This document shows, piece by piece, positions 20,820 through 32,000 of a stretch of DNA of 32,000 nt. Source of the stretch: Intrasporangium sp. (GTDB taxonomy: Bacteria > Actinomycetota > Actinomycetes > Actinomycetales > Dermatophilaceae); assembly GCF_039812505.1 (NCBI RefSeq), contig NZ_JBDIAQ010000003.1, positions 44,387 through 76,386 on the forward strand, read 5' to 3'. The notes below the pieces were generated by a model. It was not told the origin of the DNA. It searched no databases and saw only the letters and a program-made list of their open reading frames with translations. Within the stretch, counting starts at the first letter, position 1. Every line of letters begins with the position of its first letter. The position numbers were made by a program, and so were the translations under genes.

Positions 20820-20866
20820 GCATCCCGATGTAATCACGTCTGGATGTGGTGGCATCCCGATGTAAT
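20820..20866 (+). promoter_or_regulatory. Perfect 15-bp direct repeat GCATCCCGATGTAAT x2 (32-bp period) in the AT-rich spacer upstream of dxs
   Basis: Copies at 20820-20834 and 20852-20866. Each contains a -10-like TGTAAT, and TATAAC lies at 20801-20806. It sits in the 125-bp marR-dxs spacer, the most AT-rich stretch I noticed in the window. Confidence 0.6.
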
Positions 20867-20907
20867 GGTCGCGGCCCCGACACGGCCGTGGTCGGAGCGG
20901 AGGCGCA

Positions 20908-22806
20908 GTGTCGGTTCTGGAGACCATCAGCGGCCCGGAGGACCTCGGCAGGCTCGACCCGGAGGAGCTGGCTCGGCTGGCGGCGGAGATCCGCCAGGTC
21001 CTGGTCGAGACCGTCTGTTCCACCGGGGGCCATCTCGGCCCCAACCTCGGCGTGGTCGAGCTGACGATCGCGCTGCACCGCGTGTTCGACTCGCCGCGCA
21101 CCCCGATCGTCTTCGACACCGGGCACCAGTCGTACGTGCACAAGCTGCTGACCGGGCGGCTGCCCGGCTTCGCCTCGCTGCGCCAGGCCGGTGGGCTGTC
21201 CGGCTACCCCAAGCGGTCCGAGTCGGCGCACGACCTGGTGGAGAACTCGCACGCCTCGACCGCGCTGGCCTACGCCGACGGGCTGAGCCGGGCGATCGCC
21301 GGCCGCGGCGGCACCGAGCCGGTGGTGGCGGTGATCGGCGACGGGGCGCTGACCGGCGGGCTGGCCTGGGAGGGTCTGAACAACATCGGCTCGTCCGGGC
21401 GGCGCGTCGTGGTGGTGCTCAACGACAACGACCGCTCCTACGCCCCGACCGTCGGCGGGCTGCCCGAGCACCTGGGCCGACTCCGGGACCGGACCGGCTA
21501 CGCGGGCATCGTGGCCCGGCTCGGTGGCGCCGGCGCGCCGGGCCCGGACGGTGCGTCCGGTCCTGCCCACCGGTCGCGCGCCGCGTCCGGGGTGAGCCTG
21601 TTCCAGTCGATGGGCCTGGACTACCTCGGCCCGGTCGACGGGCACGACCTGACCGCCCTCGAGAGCGCCCTGGGCCGGGCGCGGGCGCACGAGCGCCCGG
21701 TCGTGGTGCACGTGCGCACCGAGAAGGGGCACGGCTACCTGCCCGCCGTGCTGGACGAGGCCGACCACCTGCACGCGGTCGGCGTGATCGACCCGGCCAC
21801 GGGCGCGCCGCGCAAGCCCGCCGCCCGGACCTGGACCGACGTGTTCGGGGCCGCTCTGGCCGACCTGGCCGAGCGGCGGCCGGACATCGTCGCGATCAGC
21901 GCGGCCATGGTCGGGCCCACCGGGCTGCGCACGCTGGCCGCGCGCCACCCGGAGCGCTGCGTCGACGTCGGCATCGCCGAGCAGCAGGCGCTGGTCAGCG
22001 CCAGCGGGATGGCGATGGGCGGGCTGCACCCGGTCGTGGCGCTCTACTCGACGTTCATGCACCGCGCGTTCGACCAGACCCTGATGGACGCGGGCCTGCA
22101 CGGGCTGCCGGTCACGCTCGTGCTGGACCGGGCCGGCATCACCGGACCCGACGGCCCGAGCCACCACGGGCTGTGGGACCTGACCCTGCTGGGGGCCGTG
22201 CCCGGGATGCGCGTCGCGGCCCCACGCGACGCCGCCTCGCTGGTCGAGGAGCTCGGCGAGGCCGTGGCGCACGTCGGGCCGAGCGCGCTGCGCTTCCCCA
22301 AGGCCGCTGCCGCCGACGCGCTGCCGGCGCTCGACCGGATCGCCGGGATGGACCTGCTGCGCCGCGCCCCCGACCCGCACGTGCTGCTGCTGGCGGTCGG
22401 TGCGCTGGCCGGCGCCGCGGTGGCGGCCGCCGACCGGCTGCTGGCCGACGGGGTGCGCTGCACGGTGCTGGACCCGCGCTGGGTGCTGCCGGTCAACGCG
22501 GCCCTGCCCGACCTGGCCGCCGAGCACGACCTGGTCGTGACCGTCGAGGACGGCCTGCGCGGCGCCGGGGTCGGGGCCCGGGTCGCCCGCGCGGTCGCGG
22601 ACGCGGACGTCGAGACGCCCGTGCGCGTGCTCGGGGTGCCGGACCAGTATGTCGCCCACGGCACCCGCGCGAGCATCCTGCACGACTTCGGCCTGGACGC
22701 CGACGGGGTCGCCACCACGGTCGCGACGGCACTGGCCGGCACGACCGGGGTGGGCGGCATACGCCACCGGGTCGCGGCCGGCCGGCGCGTCCGGAAGCCG
22801 GCGTGA
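20908..22806 (+). CDS. dxs: 1-deoxy-D-xylulose-5-phosphate synthase, 632 aa
   Basis: 'GGHLGPNLGVVELTIALHRVFDSP', 'DTGHQSYVHKLLTGR', 'GDGALTGG' and 'NDND' ThDP motifs. GTG start with GGAGCGGAGG 4 nt upstream. Confidence 0.95.
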   Translation: MSVLETISGPEDLGRLDPEELARLAAEIRQVLVETVCSTGGHLGPNLGVVELTIALHRVFDSPRTPIVFDTGHQSYVHKLLTGRLPGFASLRQAGGLSGYPKRSESAHDLVENSHASTALAYADGLSRAIAGRGGTEPVVAVIGDGALTGGLAWEGLNNIGSSGRRVVVVLNDNDRSYAPTVGGLPEHLGRLRDRTGYAGIVARLGGAGAPGPDGASGPAHRSRAASGVSLFQSMGLDYLGPVDGHDLTALESALGRARAHERPVVVHVRTEKGHGYLPAVLDEADHLHAVGVIDPATGAPRKPAARTWTDVFGAALADLAERRPDIVAISAAMVGPTGLRTLAARHPERCVDVGIAEQQALVSASGMAMGGLHPVVALYSTFMHRAFDQTLMDAGLHGLPVTLVLDRAGITGPDGPSHHGLWDLTLLGAVPGMRVAAPRDAASLVEELGEAVAHVGPSALRFPKAAAADALPALDRIAGMDLLRRAPDPHVLLLAVGALAGAAVAAADRLLADGVRCTVLDPRWVLPVNAALPDLAAEHDLVVTVEDGLRGAGVGARVARAVADADVETPVRVLGVPDQYVAHGTRASILHDFGLDADGVATTVATALAGTTGVGGIRHRVAAGRRVRKPA

Positions 22807-22813
22807 GGTCGCG

Positions 22814-23638
22814 ATGAGCACCGCCATGCACGCTGCCGAGGCCGGCGAGAACTTCCCCGTCGCGCTGCGGGTGCTGCCCGCCCGGGTGCGCCGCGAGCTG
22901 CACGCCACCTACCGGTACGCCCGGTACGTCGACGACCTCGGCGACGAGTTCGCCGGCGACCGCACCGCCGCGCTCAGGCAGGTCGCGGAGCAGGTCCGCA
23001 GCCTCTACGCGGGTGGCCGCGTCACCGACCCGGTCGTGGCCGGTATGGCGCCGCTGGTGACCCGGGCCGGGGTGCCGGCCCACTGCCTGCTGCGGCTCGT
23101 CGAGGCGAACCTGCGCGACCAGGGCGTGGCCCGGTGCCACGACTTCGCCGAGCTGCTCGACTACTGCCGCCTCTCGGCCAACCCGGTCGGCGAGATCGTG
23201 CTGGCCGTCTTCGGGGTGGCCACCCCCGACCGGGTCGAGCTGTCCGACCGGGTCTGCACGGCGCTGCAGCTGCTCGAGCACTGGCAGGACATCGGCGAGG
23301 ACCATGCCCGCGGGCGGGTCTACCTGCCGAAGGAGGACCTCGACCGGTTCGGCGTCACCGAACCGGAGCTCGGCGCCGACCGCGCGAGCCCGGCGCTGCG
23401 GCGGCTGGTCGCCTTCGAGACCGAGCGGGCCGCCGCCTGGCTCGGCGCGGGGGCCCCGCTGGTGTCGACGCTGCGCGGGTGGGCCCGGCTGGCGGTCTCG
23501 GGCTACGTGGCCGGGGGTCGTGCGGCGGCCGCCCGGATCCGGCGGGCCGGCTACGACACGCTGGCCGGCGAGGTCAAGCCGACCCGGTCGGACATCGCGA
23601 CCGCCTGGGCCGATGGGTGGCTGAGGAGGGCCGGATGA
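22814..23638 (+). CDS. hpnC: Hydroxysqualene synthase (squalene-synthase-like, HpnC type), 274 aa
   Basis: 'GENFPVALRVLPARVRRELHATYRYARYVDDLGDE' (the ENFPVA motif is typical of HpnC). Second Asp-rich region 'WQDIGEDHARGRVYLP'. Confidence 0.85.
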   Translation: MSTAMHAAEAGENFPVALRVLPARVRRELHATYRYARYVDDLGDEFAGDRTAALRQVAEQVRSLYAGGRVTDPVVAGMAPLVTRAGVPAHCLLRLVEANLRDQGVARCHDFAELLDYCRLSANPVGEIVLAVFGVATPDRVELSDRVCTALQLLEHWQDIGEDHARGRVYLPKEDLDRFGVTEPELGADRASPALRRLVAFETERAAAWLGAGAPLVSTLRGWARLAVSGYVAGGRAAAARIRRAGYDTLAGEVKPTRSDIATAWADGWLRRAG

Positions 23639-24540
23639 ACGTCACGACCGCCTACGAGCGCTGCGAGCAGATCACCCGCACCGAGGCGCGCAACTTCTCC
23701 TACGGGATCCGGCTGCTGCCGCGCCGGCAGCGTCAGGCGCTGTCCGCCGTATACGCCACGGCCCGGCGGATCGACGACATCGGCGACGGCGACGGCCCCT
23801 GCGCGCAGCGGCAGGCGGAGCTCGAGTCGCTCCGGACGCGGCTGGACGCGGTCGCGGGACGACGCGCCCGCCCCGACCGAGCCAGCCGCCCGCGCCCCCC
23901 TGCGCCGACGCAGGACGACCCCGTCCTGACCGCGCTCGCCGACGCCGCCGCCCACCTGCCGATCCCGCTCGACGCCTTCGACGACCTCATCGACGGCTGC
24001 CTGGCCGACGTCGAGGGCCGCCACTACGAGACGTTCGAGCAGGTCGTCGGCTACTGCCGCCACGTCGCGGGCTCCGTCGGCCGGCTCTCGGTCGGCGTCT
24101 ACGACCCCGCCCGGCTCGCTGCCGCCGAGCCGCTGGCCGACGACCTCGGTGTCGCGCTGCAGCTGACGAACATCCTGCGCGACCTGCGCGAGGACCGGCT
24201 CATGGGCCGGGTCTACCTGCCGCAGGAGGACCTCGACCGGCACGGGTGCACCCTCACGATCGGCGCCGACGGGACGATCACCGACCCGCCGGAGCGGTTC
24301 GACGCGCTGGTGCGCTTCCAGGCGCAGCGGGCCGAGGCGTGGTACGCGCGCGGGCTGACCCTGCTGCCCCTGCTCGACCGGCGCAGCGCCGCCTGCACGG
24401 CAGCGATGGCCGGCATCTACCACCGCCTGCTCGGACACATCGCGGCCGACCCGGGCGCGGTGCGCGGCCGGCGGCTGTCGCTCTCGACCCCGGCCAAGGT
24501 GTCCGTCGCGGTGCACGCGATCGTGCGGAGGGCCGCATGA
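23635..24540 (+). CDS. hpnD: Presqualene diphosphate synthase (HpnD type), 301 aa
   Basis: 'RNFSYGIRLLPRRQRQALSAVYATARRIDDIGD' and 'NILRDLREDRLMGRVYLP'. ATGA overlap with the hpnC stop, with GAGGAGG RBS at 23623-23629. Contains an Arg/Pro-rich insertion (RRARPDRASRPRPPAP). Confidence 0.85.
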   Translation: MNVTTAYERCEQITRTEARNFSYGIRLLPRRQRQALSAVYATARRIDDIGDGDGPCAQRQAELESLRTRLDAVAGRRARPDRASRPRPPAPTQDDPVLTALADAAAHLPIPLDAFDDLIDGCLADVEGRHYETFEQVVGYCRHVAGSVGRLSVGVYDPARLAAAEPLADDLGVALQLTNILRDLREDRLMGRVYLPQEDLDRHGCTLTIGADGTITDPPERFDALVRFQAQRAEAWYARGLTLLPLLDRRSAACTAAMAGIYHRLLGHIAADPGAVRGRRLSLSTPAKVSVAVHAIVRRAA

Positions 24541-25973
24541 GCGACCGACCGGTGATCGTCATCGGCGGCGGGCTGGCCGGGATCACCGCCGCGCTGGACC
24601 TTGCCGGGGCGGGTCGCCAGGTCCTGCTGCTCGAGGCGCGACCGCGCCTCGGCGGCAGGGCCGCCTCCGCCCGGCGTGACGGGCGTCCGCTCGACACCGG
24701 CGTGCACGTCATCCTGCGCTGCTACCAGCAGTACCGGTCGCTGCTGCGTCGGCTCGGCGTCGAGCACCTCGTCCCGATCCAGGACCGCCTCGACATCACC
24801 GTCCTGCGACCCGACGGGGACCGCGCGCGACTGACCCGGGCGCGGCGCGGCCCGGCGCCGCTGCACCTGCTCCCCGCCCTGCTGCGGTATGCCGCCCTCC
24901 CGCCGGCCGCGCGCCTGTCGGCCGCCACCGCGGCGGCGGCGCTGCGCCGGGTCGACCCGGACGACCCCCGCGCCGACCTCGAGTCCTTCGGGTCGTGGCT
25001 CGCGCGCCACGGCCAGACCCGGCTGTCCGCCGAGCGGCTGTGGGGGCTGGTGTCCACGGCCGCGCTGAACCTCCCACCGGCAGAGGCATCCCTCGGCCTC
25101 GCCGCCCGCGTCTTCCGCACCGGCCTGCTCGACGGGGTCGACTCCGGCGACATCGGCATCCCCGTGGCCCCACTTGCCGCGCTGCACGAGGAGCCCACCC
25201 GTCAGGCGCTCCTCGCGGCCGGGGCCCGGGTCACCCTCGGGTGCAAGGCGCTCGGGATCTCCCGGGACACCTCGGGCCTGACCGTCACGGTGCGCGAACG
25301 GGCCGGTGCACCGCACCCCGTCGAGGCCGAGTCGGTCGTCCTGGCCGTGCCGCACGACCACGCCGCGGAGCTCGTGCCGGCCGACGCGGCGCCCGACGCC
25401 GCCGACTGGCTCGGCCTCGGGCACTCGGCGATCGTGAACGTGCACCTGGTCCTGGACCGCCCGGTCCTGCCGGTCCCCTTCGCGGCGGTGCCCCAGAGCC
25501 CGCTCCAGTGGGTCTTCGACCGGACCGCGCCGAGTGGACGCGAGGGCACCGGCACGCAGTACCTCGTCTGCTCGGTATCGGCCGCCGACACCGCCGTCCG
25601 CACCCGTGCCGAGGACCTGGTCCGGCTGCACCTGTCCGAGCTGCGCCGCCACCTGCCGGAGGCCCGGCGCGCGGCGCTGCTGGACGGGTTCGTGACCCGG
25701 GAGCCGCAGGCCACCTTCCGGCAGGGCCCCGGCAGCCGGCAGTGGCGCCCCGGACCGGCGACCCGCTGGGACGAGCTGGCCCTCGCGGGCGCATGGACCG
25801 TGCCCGGCTGGCCCGACACCCTCGAGGCCGCCGTCCGCAGCGGGCACGCGGCGGCCGACCTGCTCGCCGGCGCGGACCGAGGCGGCGCGAGCCGCGCCGG
25901 CCAGGCGAGACGGCCGGCGCGCACTCCCCTGCACCAGCACGATGACCGACACGAGATGGAGGTGACGTCATGA
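24537..25973 (+). CDS. hpnE: Hydroxysqualene dehydroxylase (FAD-dependent amine-oxidase fold, HpnE type), 478 aa
   Basis: N-terminal dinucleotide fold 'VIVIGGGLAGITAALDLA...LLEARPRLGGRA'. Positioned after hpnCD. ATGA overlap with the hpnD stop. Low-complexity C-terminal tail. Confidence 0.85.
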   Translation: MSDRPVIVIGGGLAGITAALDLAGAGRQVLLLEARPRLGGRAASARRDGRPLDTGVHVILRCYQQYRSLLRRLGVEHLVPIQDRLDITVLRPDGDRARLTRARRGPAPLHLLPALLRYAALPPAARLSAATAAAALRRVDPDDPRADLESFGSWLARHGQTRLSAERLWGLVSTAALNLPPAEASLGLAARVFRTGLLDGVDSGDIGIPVAPLAALHEEPTRQALLAAGARVTLGCKALGISRDTSGLTVTVRERAGAPHPVEAESVVLAVPHDHAAELVPADAAPDAADWLGLGHSAIVNVHLVLDRPVLPVPFAAVPQSPLQWVFDRTAPSGREGTGTQYLVCSVSAADTAVRTRAEDLVRLHLSELRRHLPEARRAALLDGFVTREPQATFRQGPGSRQWRPGPATRWDELALAGAWTVPGWPDTLEAAVRSGHAAADLLAGADRGGASRAGQARRPARTPLHQHDDRHEMEVTS

Positions 25974-26983
25974 CCAGCGTCATGACCGACAGCGTGGGCA
26001 CCGCCCGGACCGCGACCGTCGAGCTGCTGCGCTCCGCGCTCGACCGGCTCGACCCGCACATGCGCCACGTGTGCGGCTACCACCTCGGCTTCTGGGACAC
26101 CGACGGCACCCCGAGCACCCCGGGCGGCAAGGGCGTGCGCCCCGAGCTGGTCCTGCTCGGCACCGCCGCGGCGGGCCGCGACCCGCTGGAGGCCGTACCG
26201 GCCGCGGTGGCCGTCGAGCTGGTGCACAACTTCTCGCTCGTGCACGACGACGTCATGGACGGCGACGAGCTGCGCCGGCACCGCACCACGGTGTGGGCCG
26301 CCTTCGGGCTGTCCACCGCCATCCTCGCCGGTGACGCGATGCTCGCCCTGGCCGGGGAGATCCTCGGCGCGGCCCCCTCGCCCACGGTCGGGTACGCCGT
26401 GCAGGCGCTGACCGCGACGACCCGGCGGCTGATCGCCGGGCAGACCGCCGACCTGGCCCTGGAGACCCGCCCCGACGTGACGGTGGCCGAGTGCCTGCGG
26501 ATGGAGGCCGACAAGACCGGCGCCCTGCTGGCCTGCTCGTGCTCGATCGGCCCCATGCTGACCGACGCCCCGGCGAGCAGCGCCGCGGCCCTGGCCGAGT
26601 TCGGGGAACGGGTCGGCCTGGCCTTCCAGCTGGACGACGACCTGCTGGGCATCTGGGGCGCCCCGGAGCACACCGGCAAGCCGGTCCTGTCCGACCTGCG
26701 CTCGCGCAAGAAGTCGGCACCTGTCGTGGCCGCCCTGACCTCCGGCACGACCGCCGGCGATGCGCTGCAGGCGCTCTACCGGCAGGAGGCGCCCCTCGAC
26801 GAGGACGAGCTGTACAAGGCGGCCGCCCTCGTCGAGGAGGCGGGCGGGCGCACCTGGGCCGAGCACCGCGCCGCCGCCGAGCTCGACGCGGCGCTGGGCA
26901 TCCTGGCGGACGCGTTCGCCGGGGACGAACGCGCGATCCCGTTGTCGGACATGGCGGTCCGCCTCGCCGGCCGGGACCGCTGA
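25970..26983 (+). CDS. Short-chain polyprenyl diphosphate synthase (probable FPP synthase supplying HpnD), 337 aa
   Basis: First and second Asp-rich motifs 'LVHDDVMDGDELRRHR' and 'FQLDDDLLG', with 'KTGAL'. Phe at -5 of the first motif suggests a short product. ATGA overlap with the hpnE stop. Confidence 0.88.
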   Translation: MTSVMTDSVGTARTATVELLRSALDRLDPHMRHVCGYHLGFWDTDGTPSTPGGKGVRPELVLLGTAAAGRDPLEAVPAAVAVELVHNFSLVHDDVMDGDELRRHRTTVWAAFGLSTAILAGDAMLALAGEILGAAPSPTVGYAVQALTATTRRLIAGQTADLALETRPDVTVAECLRMEADKTGALLACSCSIGPMLTDAPASSAAALAEFGERVGLAFQLDDDLLGIWGAPEHTGKPVLSDLRSRKKSAPVVAALTSGTTAGDALQALYRQEAPLDEDELYKAAALVEEAGGRTWAEHRAAAELDAALGILADAFAGDERAIPLSDMAVRLAGRDR

Positions 26984-26995
26984 GAGGAGCCCGGG

Positions 26996-28942
26996 ATGAC
27001 CATGCAAGCCGACCGGGACACGACGGCCGGGCCGTCCGGCAGGTCGGCCGACCGCGCCGCACTCGAGCGGGCGGTGGGCCGCCTGCGCGCCCTCCAGCAC
27101 CCCGACGGGTGGTGGAAGGGAGAGCTCGAGACCAACGTCACGATGGAGGCCGAGGACCTGCTCATGCGCGAGTTCCTCGGCATCCGGGGGGCGCGCGAGA
27201 CCGAGTGGACCGCCCGCTGGATCCGGGGCCGGCAACGCCCGGACGGCTCGTGGGCCACCTTCCACGGCGGACCGGCCGACCTGTCCACGACGGTCGAGGC
27301 CTACCTCGCGCTGCGCCTGGCCGGGGACGCCCCGGAGGCGCCGCACCTGGTCCGCGCCCGCGAGGTGGTCCACTCGCTCGGCGGGGTGGAGCGCTCGCGC
27401 GTCTTCACCCGGATCTGGCTCGCGCTGGTCGGGCTCTGGCCGTGGGACCGGCTGCCCGCGGTGCCGGTGGAGCAGATCCTGCTGCCGGACCGGTTCCCGC
27501 TGTCCGTCTACGACTTCGCCTGCTGGGCCCGCCAGACGATCGTGCCCATCGCGGTGCTGTTCGCCCTGCGGCCCGCCGTCCCGCTCGGCCTCACCATCGA
27601 CGAGCTGTATGCCGCCCACCCGGGCACCTCGGGGACGTCGGCTCCCGACGGGGCGGGCTCGGCGGCATCCGAACCCGCGCCGCGGCGGCCGGCCCGCACC
27701 CTGTTCGAGCGGGGGCTGGGCGGCGCGCTACGCGCCTTCGACACCCACCACCCGGGCAGGCTGCGCCGGCTGGCGCTGCGCCGCGCCGAGACGTGGATCG
27801 TCGAGCGCCAGGAGGCCGACGGCTCGTGGGGCGGGATCCAGCCGCCGTGGGTCTACTCGCTGATGGCGCTGCACGCGCTGGGCCGCCCGGTCGACGACCC
27901 GGTGATGCGGCTCGGGCTCGAGGGCTGGGAGCGGTTCACCGTCGAGGAGCCGGGCCCGGACGGTCCGGTGCGGCGCCTCGAGGCGTGCCAGTCCCCGGTG
28001 TGGGACACCGCCCTGGCGCTGGTCGCGCTCGGCGACGCCGGGCTGGCCAAGGACGACCCGATGGTCGCGCGGGCGGTGGACTGGCTGGCCGGCGAGGAGA
28101 TCGCGGTCCGCGGCGACTGGGCGGTGCGCCGGCCCGACCTGGCCCCGGGCGGCTGGGCCTTCGAGTTCGACAACGACCTGTACCCCGACGTCGACGACAC
28201 CGCCGAGGTCGTGCTCGGCCTGCACCGGGTCGGTGCGGCGGACCGCCCCGGTGTGGGACGTGGCATCGACTGGGTGCTGGGCATGCAGTGCCGGGACGGC
28301 GGGTGGGCCGCGTTCGACGCCGAGAACACCAGCACACTGCCGGCCGCCCTGCCGTTCTGCGACTTCGGGGCGGTCACCGACCCGCCCAGCGCCGACGTCA
28401 CCGCGCACGTCGTCGAGATGCTGGCCCTGACCGGCCGCGGCCACACCGCGGCGGCCTGCGCCGGCCGGGACTGGCTGCTGCGGGCCCAGGAGCCGGACGG
28501 CTCGTGGTTCGGGCGATGGGGCGCCAACCACGTCTACGGCACCGGCGCGGCGCTGCCCGCCCTCATCGCCGTCGGCGTACGGCGCTACGAGCAGCCGATC
28601 CGGCGCGGTGTCGCCTGGCTCGAGGAGGCCCAGAACGCCGACGGCGGCTGGGGCGAGGACCTGCGCTCCTACCGCGACGAGTCGCAACGCGGGCGCGGCG
28701 CCTCCACCGCGTCGCAGACCGCCTGGGCCCTGCTCGGGCTGCTGGCCGCCGGGGACTCCGGCTCCAGCGCCGTCCGCCGCGGCATCCGCTGGCTGGTCGA
28801 GCACCAGCTCGCCGACGGCGGGTGGGACGAGCCGCAGTACACCGGCACCGGCTTCCCCGGCGACTTCTACATCAACTACCACCTCTACCGGCTGGTGTTC
28901 CCGGTCAGCGCGTTGGCACGGTACCTGCGGAGCGGGTCATGA
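26996..28942 (+). CDS. shc: Squalene-hopene cyclase, 648 aa
   Basis: Catalytic 'DVDDTAEV' (DxDDTA). Multiple QW repeats ('RQEADGSWGG', 'AQEPDGSWFGRWG', 'AQNADGGWGE', 'HQLADGGWDE'). RBS GAGAGGAG overlaps the preceding stop. Confidence 0.95.
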   Translation: MTMQADRDTTAGPSGRSADRAALERAVGRLRALQHPDGWWKGELETNVTMEAEDLLMREFLGIRGARETEWTARWIRGRQRPDGSWATFHGGPADLSTTVEAYLALRLAGDAPEAPHLVRAREVVHSLGGVERSRVFTRIWLALVGLWPWDRLPAVPVEQILLPDRFPLSVYDFACWARQTIVPIAVLFALRPAVPLGLTIDELYAAHPGTSGTSAPDGAGSAASEPAPRRPARTLFERGLGGALRAFDTHHPGRLRRLALRRAETWIVERQEADGSWGGIQPPWVYSLMALHALGRPVDDPVMRLGLEGWERFTVEEPGPDGPVRRLEACQSPVWDTALALVALGDAGLAKDDPMVARAVDWLAGEEIAVRGDWAVRRPDLAPGGWAFEFDNDLYPDVDDTAEVVLGLHRVGAADRPGVGRGIDWVLGMQCRDGGWAAFDAENTSTLPAALPFCDFGAVTDPPSADVTAHVVEMLALTGRGHTAAACAGRDWLLRAQEPDGSWFGRWGANHVYGTGAALPALIAVGVRRYEQPIRRGVAWLEEAQNADGGWGEDLRSYRDESQRGRGASTASQTAWALLGLLAAGDSGSSAVRRGIRWLVEHQLADGGWDEPQYTGTGFPGDFYINYHLYRLVFPVSALARYLRSGS

Positions 28943-30444
28943 CCGGCACCCTGCTGGTGTGCGCCCCGTCCGGGCGCGAGGCCACGCACCTGCGGCAGGC
29001 ACCGGCCGCGCCCGCGGTGGCGCGCACCGGGGTCGGGCCGCTGGCCTCGGCGCGAGCGGCGGCCAGCCCCCGGGTCCGGCACGCGGACGCGCTGGCGGTG
29101 GTCGGCATCGGCGCCGGTGTGGCCGCGGGGCTGGCCCCGGGTGACGTCGTGGTGGCCTCGGAGGTCCGGCCGCCGCACGGCGCGGCGCTGCCCTGCTCCA
29201 GCGCCCCGCTGCTCGCGCATGCGCTGCGCCGGCAGGGGCTGCCGGTGCACGTCGGGCCGGTGGCCAGCGTCACGCACGTGGTGACCAACCGGGACCGCCG
29301 GGCCCTGGCCGCGACGGGGGTGCTCGCCGCCGACATGGAGTCGGTGTGGCTGCTGCGCCCGGCGCAGGCGGGGGCCCGGGCGGTCGTGCGGGTGGTCGCG
29401 GACCCGGCCGGTGAGCCGCTGCTGCGTCCCGGCACCCTGGCGCACGTCCGGCGGGCGCTGGCAACCCTGCCCGAGCTCGCGCCGGCGCTGACCGCCTGGG
29501 GCGCCGCGGCCGGCCCGCACCGGGTGCTGCTGGCCGGGCCGCGGTCCTTCTGCGCCGGCGTGGTGCGTGCCATCGAGGTCGTCGACCGGGCCCTGGACCA
29601 GCGCGGCGCCCCGGTCTACGTGCGCAAGCAGATCGTGCACAACAGCCACGTGGTGCGCCGGCTGCAGGAGCGCGGGGCGGTCTTCGTCGACGAGCTCGAC
29701 GAGGTGCCGGCCGGCGCCACGGTGATCTTCTCCGCCCACGGAGTGGCGCCGCAGGTGCGGGCGCAGGCGAACCGGCGCGGGCTGCAGGTAATCGATGCGA
29801 CCTGCCCGCTGGTGGCCAAGGTGCACGCCGAGGTGCGCCGGTTCGCCGACGGCGGCGACACGGTCATCCTCATCGGTCACCACGGGCACGAGGAGGCCGT
29901 CGGCACGATGGGCGAGCGGCCCGGCGCCACCGTGCTCGTTCAGGATCGCGACGAGGCCGAGCGGGTGCAGGTGCCCGACCCGACGCGGGTCAGCTACCTG
30001 GTGCAGACCACGCTCGCGGCCGACGAGGTGAGCGGCATAGTGCAGGTGCTGGCCCGACGCTTCCCGCACCTGCAGGCGCCCCCCTCCGAGGACATCTGCT
30101 ACGCCACCACCAACCGGCAGCTCGCCCTGCGCGCGGTGACCGGGCAGGCGCAGCTGGTGCTGGTGGTGGGCTCGGCCAACTCCTCGAACTCACAGCGTCT
30201 GGTGGAGACGGCGCGCCGCTGCGGCGTGCCCGCCCACCTCATCGACGACGTCGGCGGCCTCGACCTGGGGTGGCTCGCCGGCGTTGCGACGGTCGGACTC
30301 ACGGCCGGCGCCTCGGCCCCCCAGGAACTCGTCGACGAGGTCGTCACCGCGATCGGGGGCCTCGGCCCCCTGCAGGTGCACGAGGCACGACTCGTCGAGG
30401 AGAACGTCCATTTCAACGTGCCCAAGGAGGTACGAACGTCATGA
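28939..30444 (+). CDS. Fusion protein: hopanoid-associated phosphorylase/nucleosidase (HpnG-like, aa 1 to ~190) + 4-hydroxy-3-methylbut-2-enyl diphosphate reductase (IspH/LytB, aa ~194-501)
   Basis: A single uninterrupted frame. The N-part has PNP/UDP-phosphorylase-like 'ALAVVGIGAGVAAGL' and 'GVLAADMESVW'. The C-part has IspH 'LLAGPRSFCAGVVRAIE', 'IDATCPLVAKVH', 'GHHGHEEAVGT', 'DICYATTNRQ' and 'GSANSSNSQRL'. ATGA overlaps at both ends (shc stop, hpnH start). Confidence 0.85.
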   Translation: MTGTLLVCAPSGREATHLRQAPAAPAVARTGVGPLASARAAASPRVRHADALAVVGIGAGVAAGLAPGDVVVASEVRPPHGAALPCSSAPLLAHALRRQGLPVHVGPVASVTHVVTNRDRRALAATGVLAADMESVWLLRPAQAGARAVVRVVADPAGEPLLRPGTLAHVRRALATLPELAPALTAWGAAAGPHRVLLAGPRSFCAGVVRAIEVVDRALDQRGAPVYVRKQIVHNSHVVRRLQERGAVFVDELDEVPAGATVIFSAHGVAPQVRAQANRRGLQVIDATCPLVAKVHAEVRRFADGGDTVILIGHHGHEEAVGTMGERPGATVLVQDRDEAERVQVPDPTRVSYLVQTTLAADEVSGIVQVLARRFPHLQAPPSEDICYATTNRQLALRAVTGQAQLVLVVGSANSSNSQRLVETARRCGVPAHLIDDVGGLDLGWLAGVATVGLTAGASAPQELVDEVVTAIGGLGPLQVHEARLVEENVHFNVPKEVRTS

Positions 30445-31448
30445 CGATGCCACTTCGGCAGAGCGTCAGGATCGCCGCCTATCTGGCGGCCCAGAAGCTG
30501 CGCCACCGGGACAAGTTCCCCCTCCTCCTGGAACTGGAGCCCCTGTTCGCCTGCAACCTGGCCTGTGCGGGCTGTGGCAAGATCCAGCAGCCGGCCGACC
30601 AGCTGCGGCGCCGGATGCCGGTCGAGCAGGCCCTCGCGGCCGTCGAGGAGTGCGGCGCCCCGATGGTCTCGATCGCCGGCGGCGAGCCGCTCATGCACCC
30701 CCAGATCGACAAGATCGCCAACGAGCTGGTGGCGCGCAAGAAGTTCGTCTTCCTGTGCACCAACGCGACGCTGCTGCGCAAGTGGTGGGACCGGTTCGAG
30801 TTCAAGCCCTCGCCCTACTTCGCCTTCACGATCCACATCGACGGGCTGCGCGAGCGGCACGACGAGTCGGTGCAGCGCGAGGGTGTCTTCGACGAGGCCG
30901 TCGAGGCGGTGCGCTGGCTGAAGGAACGCGGGTTCCGGGTCACCTCGAACAGCACGTTCTTCACGACCGACAGCCCCCAGTCGGTCATCGACGTGCTGAA
31001 CTACCTCAACGACGACCTCCAGGTCGACGAGATGATGATCTCGCCCGCCTACGCCTACGAGAAGGCCCCCGACCAGGAGCACTTCCTCGGCGTGCAGGAG
31101 ACCCGCGAGCTGTTCCACAAGGTCTTCGCCGACGGCCGGCGCAAGAAGTGGCGCCTGAACCACTCACCGCTCTTCCTCGACTTCCTCGAGGGCAAGGTGG
31201 ACTTCCCGTGCACGGCGTGGGGGATCCCGAGCTACTCGCTCTACGGCTGGCAGCGGCCCTGCTATCTGCTGAACGACGGCTACACGAAGACCTACAAGGA
31301 GCTGGTCGAGACGACCGACTGGGACAGCTACGGCCGCGGCCGCGACCCGCGCTGCGCGAACTGTATGGCGCACTGCGGCTACGAACCGACGGCGGTCCTG
31401 GCCACGATGGGCTCGCTCAAGCAGTCGCTGCGCGCGATGCACCCGTAA
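30441..31448 (+). CDS. hpnH: Adenosylhopane synthase (radical SAM, HpnH), 335 aa
   Basis: 'EPLFACNLACAGCGK' (CxxxCxxC) and 'SIAGGEPLMH'. The C-terminal 'CANCMAHCGYEP' is typical of HpnH. AAGGAGG lies 10 nt upstream. TAA stop. Confidence 0.93.
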   Translation: MTMPLRQSVRIAAYLAAQKLRHRDKFPLLLELEPLFACNLACAGCGKIQQPADQLRRRMPVEQALAAVEECGAPMVSIAGGEPLMHPQIDKIANELVARKKFVFLCTNATLLRKWWDRFEFKPSPYFAFTIHIDGLRERHDESVQREGVFDEAVEAVRWLKERGFRVTSNSTFFTTDSPQSVIDVLNYLNDDLQVDEMMISPAYAYEKAPDQEHFLGVQETRELFHKVFADGRRKKWRLNHSPLFLDFLEGKVDFPCTAWGIPSYSLYGWQRPCYLLNDGYTKTYKELVETTDWDSYGRGRDPRCANCMAHCGYEPTAVLATMGSLKQSLRAMHP

Positions 31449-31526: not shown

Positions 31527-32000
31527 ATGGCGTCATCTCCCGACCGGCTGGCCGCTGCGGAGCCGGGCTCACGGCGGGGTCCGGTTCGTCGCTGGGTCCG
31601 TGACCATCCGGCCGACATCGTCGACCTGTTCGTCTACGTCGTCGTGCTCAACCTCGCCATCGAGTACCTCCCTGCGGTCATCAGCGAGGGCTTCACCCTC
31701 TCGCTGCTGACGGCGGTCCTGCTGAAGGTCACGCTGGAGATCGTCCGGTTCCTCAAGGGTCGTATCGTGGCCCGGTTCCGGGTGGCTGCCACGCCGGGAC
31801 CCAAGGTGGCGGCGGCGCTGGCGTTGTGGGTGGTGGCCGCCGGGAGCAAGTTCGTGGTGCTCGAGCTCGTGGCGCTGTTCTTCGGCGACTCGGTGAGCCT
31901 GGGCGGGTTCATCCCGGTCACGCTTCTCGTCGTCGTCCTGCTCCTGTCACGGAGTGCGGTGCGGCTCCTGCTGATCGACCCGGCAGCGGGCGCCTCCTGA
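31527..32000 (+). CDS. Small hydrophobic membrane protein of unknown function, 157 aa
   Basis: The ORF ends with TGA exactly at the window edge. 3-4 predicted TM segments ('LFVYVVVLNLAIEYL', 'LSLLTAVLLKVTL', 'AAALALWVVAAGSKFVVLELVALFF', 'IPVTLLVVVLLLS'). High GC3. Start uncertain, with no clear RBS. Confidence 0.55.
   Translation: MASSPDRLAAAEPGSRRGPVRRWVRDHPADIVDLFVYVVVLNLAIEYLPAVISEGFTLSLLTAVLLKVTLEIVRFLKGRIVARFRVAATPGPKVAAALALWVVAAGSKFVVLELVALFFGDSVSLGGFIPVTLLVVVLLLSRSAVRLLLIDPAAGAS

Follow-up and report, generated by a model that had tools for sequence, protein, structure and literature searches.

In actinobacterial hopanoid operons of the Streptomyces type (shc-hpnG-hpnH-ispG-dxs), HpnG occupies the slot between shc and hpnH as a stand-alone protein, which we take to be the SCO6765 type. 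This protein is 213 aa long and ends about 8 residues past a conserved Trp, without an IspH domain and with a possible relic of the first IspH strand only. The proteobacterial-type HpnG (TIGR03468, hopanoid-associated phosphorylase) likewise belongs to the PNP_UDP_1 superfamily and to hopanoid operons, and the reaction predicted for HpnG is the removal of adenine from adenosylhopane (PMC12583986). Extra copies of IspH (LytB) are known from the isotuberculosinol operon of Mycobacterium tuberculosis, which holds dxs2, lytB1 (Rv3382c) and idsB (Rv3383c); its LytB1 shares about 50% identity with LytB2, which is essential, and can complement E. coli cells depleted of lytB (PMC3470408). Fusions of biosynthetic enzymes have also been described, such as IspDF, which joins non-consecutive steps of one pathway (PMC13001223), HpnCD (PMC5462960) and IspH-RpsA (IspH-S1, NCBIfam NF000907), but all of these have other partners than the HpnG-IspH pair reported here, and a literature search found no paper describing the latter.

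The window analyzed (32,000 nucleotides from one contig of Intrasporangium sp.) carries a hopanoid operon in which a single gene lies between shc and hpnH (Table 1). Its frame runs from the ATG at 28939 to the TGA at 30442-30444 with zero internal stops and encodes 501 aa, as the initial annotation had stated, and all motifs quoted there are present: GVLAADMESVW at residues 127-137, SFCAGV with C205, DATCPLV with C289, DICYATT with C387 and HHGHEE at 314-319. The ATG overlaps the shc stop codon (ATGA), and the stop codon overlaps the hpnH ATG at 30441. The hpnCDE-pps-shc synteny is common to this operon and those of the Streptomyces type, whereas the MEP genes differ, being dxs and ispH here and ispG and dxs there; another dxs of the genome lies on contig C23. 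By gene content the operon also resembles that of isotuberculosinol, a terpenoid operon with an extra Dxs, an extra IspH and an IdsB-type prenyl synthase, although LytB1, at 329 aa, has no nucleosidase part and the pathway leads to a diterpenoid instead of a hopanoid. Pairs of pps and IspH genes in Nocardiopsis, Prauserella and others look like an isotuberculosinol-type module.

Table 1. Positions in the window of the fused gene, its parts and the neighbouring operon genes
Feature	Position	Strand	Basis or remark
Second dxs	20908..22806	+	First gene of operon; TIGR00204 535 bits
hpnC, hpnD, hpnE (squalene synthesis)	22649..25973	+	TIGR03464 269, TIGR03465 261, TIGR03467 384 bits; boundaries are longest ORFs, real hpnC start probably just past dxs stop
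IdsB-like polyprenyl diphosphate synthase	25970..26983	+	PF00348 185 bits; NF045549 GGPPsyn_IdsB 294 bits, under cut-off
shc (squalene-hopene cyclase)	26996..28942	+	Upstream neighbour; TIGR01507 711 bits
Shine-Dalgarno-like GGAG	28929..28932	+	Inside shc end, 5' of fusion ATG; upstream string tggcacggtacctgcGGAGcgggtc ATG
Fused hpnG-ispH gene (P0001)	28939..30444	+	501 codons plus TGA, uninterrupted frame
HpnG-like MTAN/PNP-fold nucleosidase domain, residues 1-190	28939..29508	+	PF01048, TIGR03468, Foldseek, AF2
Glu14 codon	28978..28980	+	At least 90% conserved in 36 fused proteins
DMES motif, Asp132-Ser135	29332..29343	+	E134, S135 invariant (36 fused proteins)
RVVAD motif, Arg151...Asp155	29389..29403	+	R151, D155 invariant (36 fused proteins)
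Linker, residues 191-194	29509..29520	+	Very short; HpnG C-terminal helix to first IspH strand
Complete IspH (LytB) domain, residues 195-501	29521..30441	+	PF02401, TIGR00216, E. coli alignment, Foldseek
In-frame GTG, Val196 (codon 196)	29524..29526	+	At canonical IspH N-terminus; start codon not conserved
Cys205, [4Fe-4S] ligand (E. coli Cys12)	29551..29553	+	Invariant in 36 fused proteins
Cys289, [4Fe-4S] ligand (E. coli Cys96)	29803..29805	+	Invariant in 36 fused proteins
Cys387, [4Fe-4S] ligand (E. coli Cys197)	30097..30099	+	Invariant in 36 fused proteins
hpnH (adenosyl-hopene transferase, radical SAM)	30441..31448	+	Downstream neighbour; TIGR03470 518 bits

The N-terminal half matched Pfam PNP_UDP_1 (PF01048) at residues 26-159 with a score barely above the cut-off (29.9 vs 25.1 bits), and the TIGR03468 HpnG model at profile positions 24-162 of 212 with a score well below it (52.6 vs 187.1 bits). 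The domain is therefore named HpnG-like (actinobacterial type) and not a TIGR03468 member; in a profile search of the genome it was the sole TIGR03468-like match. Over residues 22-188 the domain was 43-46% identical to Streptomyces-type HpnG (E 1e-18 to 1e-23), with which it shares the DMES and RVV(V)D motifs. Foldseek matched this half to MTAN, PNP and futalosine hydrolase (TM about 0.6-0.68, E about 1e-8). The DMES motif aligns with EMEG of the MTAN 4g41, with Glu134 as the counterpart of the ribose-binding Glu174, and RVVAD aligns with RAMSD, with Arg151 and Asp155 as the counterparts of Arg193 and the catalytic Asp197; Glu14 is, by its position, presumably the equivalent of MTAN Glu12. This set of catalytic acid and ribose-binding residues of the PNP_UDP_1/MTAN fold (E14, E134, R151 and D155) is kept at a mean identity of 48% in the HpnG half, and the position between shc and hpnH recurs at about 57 loci.

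The C-terminal half was recognized by Pfam LYTB (PF02401) at residues 196-472 (298.9 bits, E 4e-89, cut-off 24.5), by TIGR00216 (ispH; 303.2 bits, cut-off 187.85) and by the NF002190 subfamily model (392.2 vs 389), while two narrower equivalogs were narrowly missed (NF002189, 424.6 vs 444; NF002188, 405 vs 420). E. coli IspH (3ke8, 3f7t) aligned end to end with it (311 bits, about 51% identity). In the pairwise alignment the cluster ligands C12, C96 and C197, one for each lobe, as well as H41, H74, H124, E126, T167, S225, S226, N227 and S269, are identical, and the equivalents of all of them are invariant across 36 fused proteins; the nine residues other than the cysteines are presumably the HMBPP-binding and catalytic residues of E. 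coli. The predicted structure of this half has the three-lobed clover fold and superposed on the IspH:HMBPP complex 3ke8 with a TM of 0.95 and an rmsd of 1.6 A. The fusion differs from E. coli IspH in its extra 194-residue N-terminal nucleosidase domain and in being a second, non-housekeeping paralogue in a lipid operon: it is 55% identical to the housekeeping IspH, which is encoded on another contig. In the IspH tree, fused and derived forms share one clade (84% SH-aLRT), and the housekeeping copies lie outside it, across the root, six of the seven forming a clade of their own (99% SH-aLRT). The initial annotation, which had read the gene as an HpnG-type nucleosidase joined to a complete IspH in a hopanoid operon, is confirmed.

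Fusion in a single frame was found in at least 120 protein clusters, and when orthologous loci were compared for fused versus separate genes, as the initial annotation had suggested, about 57 of 80 genome loci carried the fused form. Carriers include Frankia, Actinomadura, Micromonospora, Streptosporangiaceae, Solirubrobacterales and Acidimicrobiales, and the in-frame junction was seen in dozens of independent assemblies, among them the finished chromosomes of Frankia sp. QA3 and Actinomadura madurae ATCC 19425. Such conservation indicates that the fusion is not the recent, trivial loss of an hpnG stop codon that had been considered at first; judged from these sequences, it is old and common in Actinomycetota, where it carries the label "IspH" only.

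Derived forms showed that each half can be lost without the other. In Nocardiopsis and Actinosynnema the IspH half is intact and adjoins a prenyl synthase, the HpnG half has decayed to a dead remnant, and shc and hpnH were sought in these draft genomes and not found. Conversely, Micromonospora zhanjiangensis has an intact hopanoid operon and HpnG, with an IspH that lacks two of its three lobes and the cluster ligands. An intact HpnG with an IspH devoid of cluster ligands was found in about 35 of 150 representative clusters, in which the two middle lobes are gone and the first IspH strand and the C-terminal lobe are retained, which together make up, as we take it, a full leaf out of the three in the IspH fold. 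The HpnG at locus L109 (genome G207) has kept of IspH only the tail 'IPKEVT', and Streptomyces-like stand-alone HpnGs all end in ...EWHR[SN][LV]LLP[RW]R, an ending similar to the first IspH strand. In a Streptomyces-like genus, each of the 10 genomes has a stand-alone gene at the X position of shc-X-hpnH, and operons of the Streptomyces type encode HpnG alone, with ispG and dxs instead and no ispH. This reciprocal decay, together with the Streptomyces-type HpnG alone, indicates that the fused halves are separable in evolution, and the Rosetta-stone-type physical coupling for which the initial annotation had argued is, as an obligate one, not supported. The series can be read as a natural domain-deletion experiment, leading from the full fusion to HpnG with one IspH leaf and to HpnG alone, and in the opposite direction to a dead HpnG stub with IspH.

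Taken together, the gene product is most probably a single bifunctional protein of about 54 kDa, consisting of two catalytically independent modules, an HpnG and a precursor-supply IspH paralogue. The N-terminal module would be an actinobacterial, MTAN-like HpnG that cleaves adenine off the hpnH product adenosylhopane to give ribosylhopane, and the C-terminal module would be a canonical [4Fe-4S] IspH converting HMBPP to IPP and DMAPP, both activities being predicted from sequence. The operon-dedicated second IspH, the extra Dxs and the IdsB-like prenyl synthase may raise precursor flux while the operon is expressed, and a supply role is supported by the second dxs and the prenyl synthase in this operon, by the ispG and dxs of the Streptomyces type and by the comparable dxs2, lytB1 and idsB set of the isotuberculosinol operon. 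An hpnG and an ispH gene lying side by side may have fused once, early in the history of Actinomycetota, the fusion being inherited ever since. Its benefit is probably co-expression and a stable fold rather than channelling, since the two reactions are many pathway steps apart. The two halves appear to work independently, with no sign of new chemistry.

Some observations do not fit this bifunctional reading easily. The HpnG half scores under the NCBIfam HpnG cut-off, and simple co-expression leaves a long-kept fusion unexplained in an operon that is already translationally coupled. In the AF2 model (pLDDT 90.5, pTM 0.85), the long helix 164-190 that closes the HpnG-like domain is followed by strand 194-199 in a confidently fixed domain orientation, and the linker of 3-4 residues is nearly invariant in length in the alignment of the 36 fused proteins; the long retention, the short linker and the fixed orientation suggest some advantage of physical linkage. 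Moreover, M. tuberculosis LytB1, a comparable second paralogue, is unable to replace LytB2 in its own host (PMC4550268), so extra IspH copies are not always simply redundant.

It is unlikely that a structural or regulatory partnership with HpnG accounts, at least in part, for the retention of the IspH-derived region, with IspH catalysis secondary or dispensable. On this reading the region might serve as a folding or oligomerization scaffold, as a surface to which HpnH or the membrane docks, or as an Fe-S or redox sensor tying side-chain processing to cluster status. The short linker of invariant length would agree with this, as would the non-random deletion that spares the first strand and the C-terminal lobe, the predicted compact two-domain fold of a lobe-deleted protein of 319 aa (pLDDT 90.6, pTM 0.89) and the strand-like ends of the Streptomyces-like HpnGs. 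A mere scaffold, however, would not be expected to keep the full catalytic equipment of IspH invariant in 36 of 36 aligned full-length fusions, and the L109 protein and the Streptomyces-like HpnGs, which are nearly without an IspH part, indicate that HpnG does not need the leaf. It is similarly doubtful that the last leaf is an integral structural or regulatory element of actinobacterial HpnG and that the intact Fe-S domain of the full fusion links the cell's cluster or redox state to side-chain processing or to another side-chain step; if true, this would explain why a rigid linker of 3-4 residues was kept across three classes of Actinomycetota and why a single leaf was spared in many lineages with a dead IspH.

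The initial annotation had also raised the idea that the cluster-encoded IspH acts in side-chain chemistry. In this reading it would reduce or dehydroxylate the ribosyl group, turning ribosylhopane into BHT or a deoxy product, and the fusion would channel the HpnG product to it. The annotation had correctly regarded the enzyme from ribosylhopane to BHT as unassigned, which is still called not established (PMC12583986; see also PMC5462960), and the fusion partners are encoded beside HpnH, ispH clusters with shc and hpnH in Acidobacteria as well (PMC5462960), and IspH has some substrate promiscuity, such as acetylene hydration (PMC8837944). However, all residues binding the diphosphate and hydroxymethyl groups of HMBPP are conserved in a predicted fold that superposes on IspH:HMBPP, and the active site of the three-leaf fold is buried between three domains (PMC8837944), where a C35 hopanoid free of diphosphate would probably not fit. 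The same IspH lineage is, furthermore, maintained in the draft genomes in which no shc or hpnH was found, is destroyed within intact hopanoid operons and is entirely absent from Streptomyces-type operons, which makes a side-chain role highly improbable. Streptomyces coelicolor makes C35 hopanoids, which counts against it as well, as do the additional dxs and prenyl-synthase genes of the operon studied. The decay series speaks against IspH being the missing enzyme between ribosylhopane and BHT, and directs experimenters elsewhere.

That errors of assembly or sequencing in this 266-contig draft produced the single frame, or that it yields two proteins through internal initiation at GTG 29524, located exactly at the IspH N-terminus, has a negligible chance of being right, because the junction recurs in frame at independent loci and in finished chromosomes, 44 of 63 fused loci have GTG as the homologous codon but 18 have a non-start codon (GTC, GTA, CTC or ATC), an SD-like motif precedes it in just 6 of 63, the linker measures 3-4 residues, and the modelled helix runs straight into the strand. 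As first noted, the GTG lacks a Shine-Dalgarno sequence, no GGAG, GAGG or AGGA occurring in the preceding 25 nt, while the starts of the fusion, shc and hpnH are preceded by GGAG, GAGAGGAG and AAGGAGG, respectively.

The fusion is no new kind of chemistry. The locus illustrates clearly how a lipid operon can carry its own MEP entry (Dxs) and exit (IspH) enzymes. Surveys made via TIGR03468 or IPR017831 will miss the fused HpnG, and since it scores below the TIGR03468 cut-off, the capacity for extended (C35) hopanoids is under-called in such surveys, including in Frankia, whose hopanoids form the nitrogenase-protecting vesicle envelope.

The window encodes an HpnG-like nucleosidase (residues 1-190) and IspH (residues 195-501) in a single frame of 501 codons, as the initial annotation had stated, and all the motifs quoted there were found in the protein. 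The frame belongs to an operon on one strand with the order dxs, hpnC, hpnD, hpnE, an IdsB-like prenyl synthase gene, the squalene-hopene cyclase gene shc, the fusion and hpnH. The start codon of the fusion shares ATGA with the stop codon of shc, and its own stop codon, TGA, is overlapped by the hpnH ATG at 30441; the motifs upstream of the start codons are GGAG for the fusion, GAGAGGAG for shc and AAGGAGG for hpnH. Elsewhere in the genome, a stand-alone IspH that is 55% identical to the fusion IspH was located on contig C44 and a second dxs on contig C23, and a genome search found no further HpnG-like gene. An ORF at 20844-22817 (657 aa, ATG), which overlaps dxs in another frame, had no family match and is a typical high-GC shadow ORF. 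Directly past hpnH, a hydrophobic 157-codon ORF (31527-32000) continues beyond the window end and had no NCBIfam match.

Coordinates of the fusion, the dxs of its operon and related loci in other genomes (L, locus handle; P, protein handle)
Feature	Location	Strand	Remarks
Fusion gene	28939-30444	+	One open frame, 501 codons
In-frame GTG	29524	+	Codon 196 of the fusion; no Shine-Dalgarno-like sequence before it
dxs	20908-22806	+	535 bits; sole dxs frame of two overlapping long ORFs
Prenyl synthase then stub-IspH	L056-L063, L068, e.g. L063:5653-6930		Fused-clade IspH
IspH without nucleosidase domain	L081:1263-2477		Order shc-IspH-hpnH; MAG Actinobacteria bacterium AC_9
HpnG plus one IspH leaf	L096:7001-7960		Micromonospora zhanjiangensis, P0318; other representatives P0126, P0130, P0306, P0319
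Stand-alone HpnG	L097:9327-9968, L100-L108		Ten genomes, Streptomyces-like genus

By every testable criterion of family membership, the C-terminal half is an IspH. Pfam LYTB covers residues 196-472 (298.9 bits), NCBIfam TIGR00216 (ispH) is matched at 303 bits, well over its cut-off of 188, and the alignment with E. coli IspH runs end to end (311 bits), with C12, C96, C197, H41, H74, H124, E126, T167, S225, S226, N227 and S269 (E. coli numbering) all retained. These cluster and substrate residues are invariant among 36 diverse fused proteins, and the C-terminal part of the AlphaFold model of the fusion (pLDDT 90.5, pTM 0.85) superposes on the IspH:HMBPP complex with a TM of 0.95 at 1.6 Å. For the N-terminal half, Pfam PNP_UDP_1 was matched at residues 26-159 (29.9 bits). 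Since a sequence search against the PDB returned only marginal MTAN matches (E 0.01-1), a fold search was required to settle the fold, and the modeled domain resembles MTA/SAH nucleosidases, purine nucleoside phosphorylases and futalosine hydrolase (TM 0.6-0.68, E about 1e-8). In sequence alignment, DMES corresponds to the EME(G) motif of MTAN and RVVAD to RAxSD, and Glu14, Glu134, Ser135, Arg151 and Asp155 are invariant or almost so, at a mean pairwise identity of 48% in this domain versus 66% in IspH. Fold, catalytic residues and genomic context all agree with HpnG, although the HpnG profile TIGR03468 scores 52.6 bits, below its cut-off of 187; the half is best called a predicted actinobacterial HpnG-type nucleosidase. 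In the model, helix 164-190 leads into the first IspH strand (194-199) via a linker of 3-4 residues, the length of which is almost constant among the fused proteins.

Among 5.8 billion proteins searched, the matches of about 500 residues make up at least 120 clusters with 57-88% identity, all but two of them having both Pfam domains, and the database name, where one was given, was IspH. The closest fused relatives are from Intrasporangium, and the same frame occurs in named genomes of Intrasporangium, Actinopolymorpha, many Frankia, Phytohabitans, Pseudonocardia, Actinomadura, Streptosporangiaceae, Solirubrobacterales and an Acidimicrobiales MAG; further searches added Micromonospora, Plantactinospora, Dactylosporangium and Amycolatopsis. 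Of the 80 loci re-analyzed, about 57 have both domains in a single frame that no stop codon interrupts. Across these loci, the fusion precedes hpnH and directly follows shc, or in Solirubrobacterales follows hpnE, with shc a few kb upstream. In Frankia, hpnH lies 0.1-5 kb beyond the fusion, and in the Frankia loci L009, L012, L016, L017, L020, L044, L048 and L049 the two are non-adjacent, with 0.5 to about 5 kb of other sequence in between. The shc match of these loci is split in two, as if the cyclase had an insertion that the Shc of the window lacks. Two frames share the fusion, shc or hpnH in loci L064, L066, L072 and L074, which come from 'MFD' long-read MAGs, and these splits are probably homopolymer frameshift errors of assembly and not real pseudogenes.

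A trivial fusion through recent loss of the hpnG stop codon, which the initial annotation had considered, and an assembly error are ruled out by the number of fused clusters and by the fused frame in independent genomes, finished chromosomes among them. The initial annotation had also pointed out that the internal GTG coincides with the canonical IspH N-terminus but lacks a Shine-Dalgarno sequence, and none was indeed detected before it. Among 63 loci, the homologous codon is unable to start translation in 18 and is preceded by a Shine-Dalgarno-like motif in only 6; internal initiation was rejected on these grounds, and the product is taken to be the fused polypeptide.

Each half of the protein also occurs where the other has decayed. 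In an IspH tree from a quick search, the deep nodes of which are moderately supported, all fused copies and their derivatives formed one clade (84% SH-aLRT), and six of the seven stand-alone copies, that is, the second IspH of the window's genome and those of five other actinobacteria, formed a separate clade (99% SH-aLRT); the seventh, from Amycolatopsis samaneae (locus L069), grouped within the fused/derived clade. Prauserella, Pseudonocardia acidicola, Actinosynnema, Nocardiopsis and Streptomonospora have a fused-clade IspH adjoining a prenyl synthase gene. This stub-IspH carries an N-terminal extension of 120-170 residues, of which about 40-55 are still recognizable as HpnG (profile positions ~62-110), without the first 65 HpnG residues and without the DMES and RVVAD region. 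Whole-genome searches detected neither shc nor hpnH in the draft genomes of two Nocardiopsis and one Actinosynnema, indicating that where hopanoids are lost the IspH module persists and the HpnG module decays. In the Prauserella and Pseudonocardia genomes, a further IspH copy was located in a hopanoid operon, with shc on one side and hpnH on the other; the Prauserella copy is the full fusion.

About 35 of the best 150 N-domain representatives at 50% identity are proteins of ~300-350 aa with an intact HpnG, in which an internal deletion of ~180 residues has reduced the IspH part to the first strand and the last of its three lobes, or leaves; C96, C197 and the His and Glu residues are gone, and usually C12 also. 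In M. zhanjiangensis, such a protein is encoded at the usual position X of the hpnCDE-pps-shc-X-hpnH operon, the rest of which is intact. The predicted fold is compact (pLDDT 90.6, pTM 0.89), and MTAN/PNP structures alone were among the top 50 Foldseek matches of the 319-aa model, so that the identity of the leaf comes from sequence alignment. Ten genomes were sampled from one Streptomyces-like genus with large genomes, and each has a stand-alone HpnG of 213 aa that is 43-46% identical to the N-domain. Many N-only representatives are on contigs of ~1 kb and may be contig-end fragments; these were neither counted as stand-alone genes nor used as evidence. The gene lies in the order shc-hpnG-hpnH, followed by ispG and dxs, which we take to be the Streptomyces arrangement, the genus being named here from its operon structure and genome size. 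All ten proteins terminate in EWHR[SN][LV]LLP[RW]R, which resembles the fusion junction plus the first IspH strand (W-x6-R-x-VLLAxPRS), and the stand-alone HpnG of locus L109 (genome G207) terminates in IPKEVT, similar to the IspH C-terminus. Short as these motifs are, they may tentatively be read as relics of a fused ancestor, and together with the moderately supported IspH tree they form the basis on which the fused state could, as tentatively, be ancestral.

The HpnG module tracks with shc and hpnH, and the IspH module with the prenyl synthase and isoprenoid supply, and either can be lost with retention of the other. The initial annotation had raised a role of the cluster-encoded IspH in hopanoid side-chain chemistry. 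Its statement that the enzyme from ribosylhopane to bacteriohopanetetrol is still without assignment agrees with the literature (PMC12583986, PMC5462960); the comparative data argue against IspH filling this gap. A less likely but more interesting reading is that the IspH leaf has a structural role for HpnG, which would explain why the linkage of both halves is retained very rigidly and exactly one leaf is kept in many IspH-dead lineages. A PDB entry of 2026, 9ql0, bears the title 'E. coli IspH crystallized in the presence of adenosine hemisulfate' and may be of interest, as the fusion partner of IspH here is one predicted to handle an adenosyl lipid. In M. tuberculosis, dxs2, lytB1 and idsB lie in a terpenoid operon, and LytB1 complements E. 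coli (PMC3470408); the operon of the window is alike in having extra dxs, IspH and prenyl synthase genes. This precedent, the module-wise loss, the conserved HMBPP site and the extra dxs and prenyl synthase are best explained by a bifunctional protein whose activities do not depend on each other, in which the HpnG module would act as an adenosylhopane nucleosidase and the IspH module as a dedicated HMBPP reductase that would raise precursor flux.

No description of an HpnG-IspH fusion was found in the openly accessible literature searched, and the fusion is not mentioned in PMC12324291, PMC12583986, PMC13001223, PMC5462960 or PMC10663253. With the databases saying only IspH, it is an undescribed but widespread architecture of two known enzyme families. 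Nothing in the data points to new chemistry, and the importance of the finding is practical, for annotation and for surveys of hopanoid capacity.
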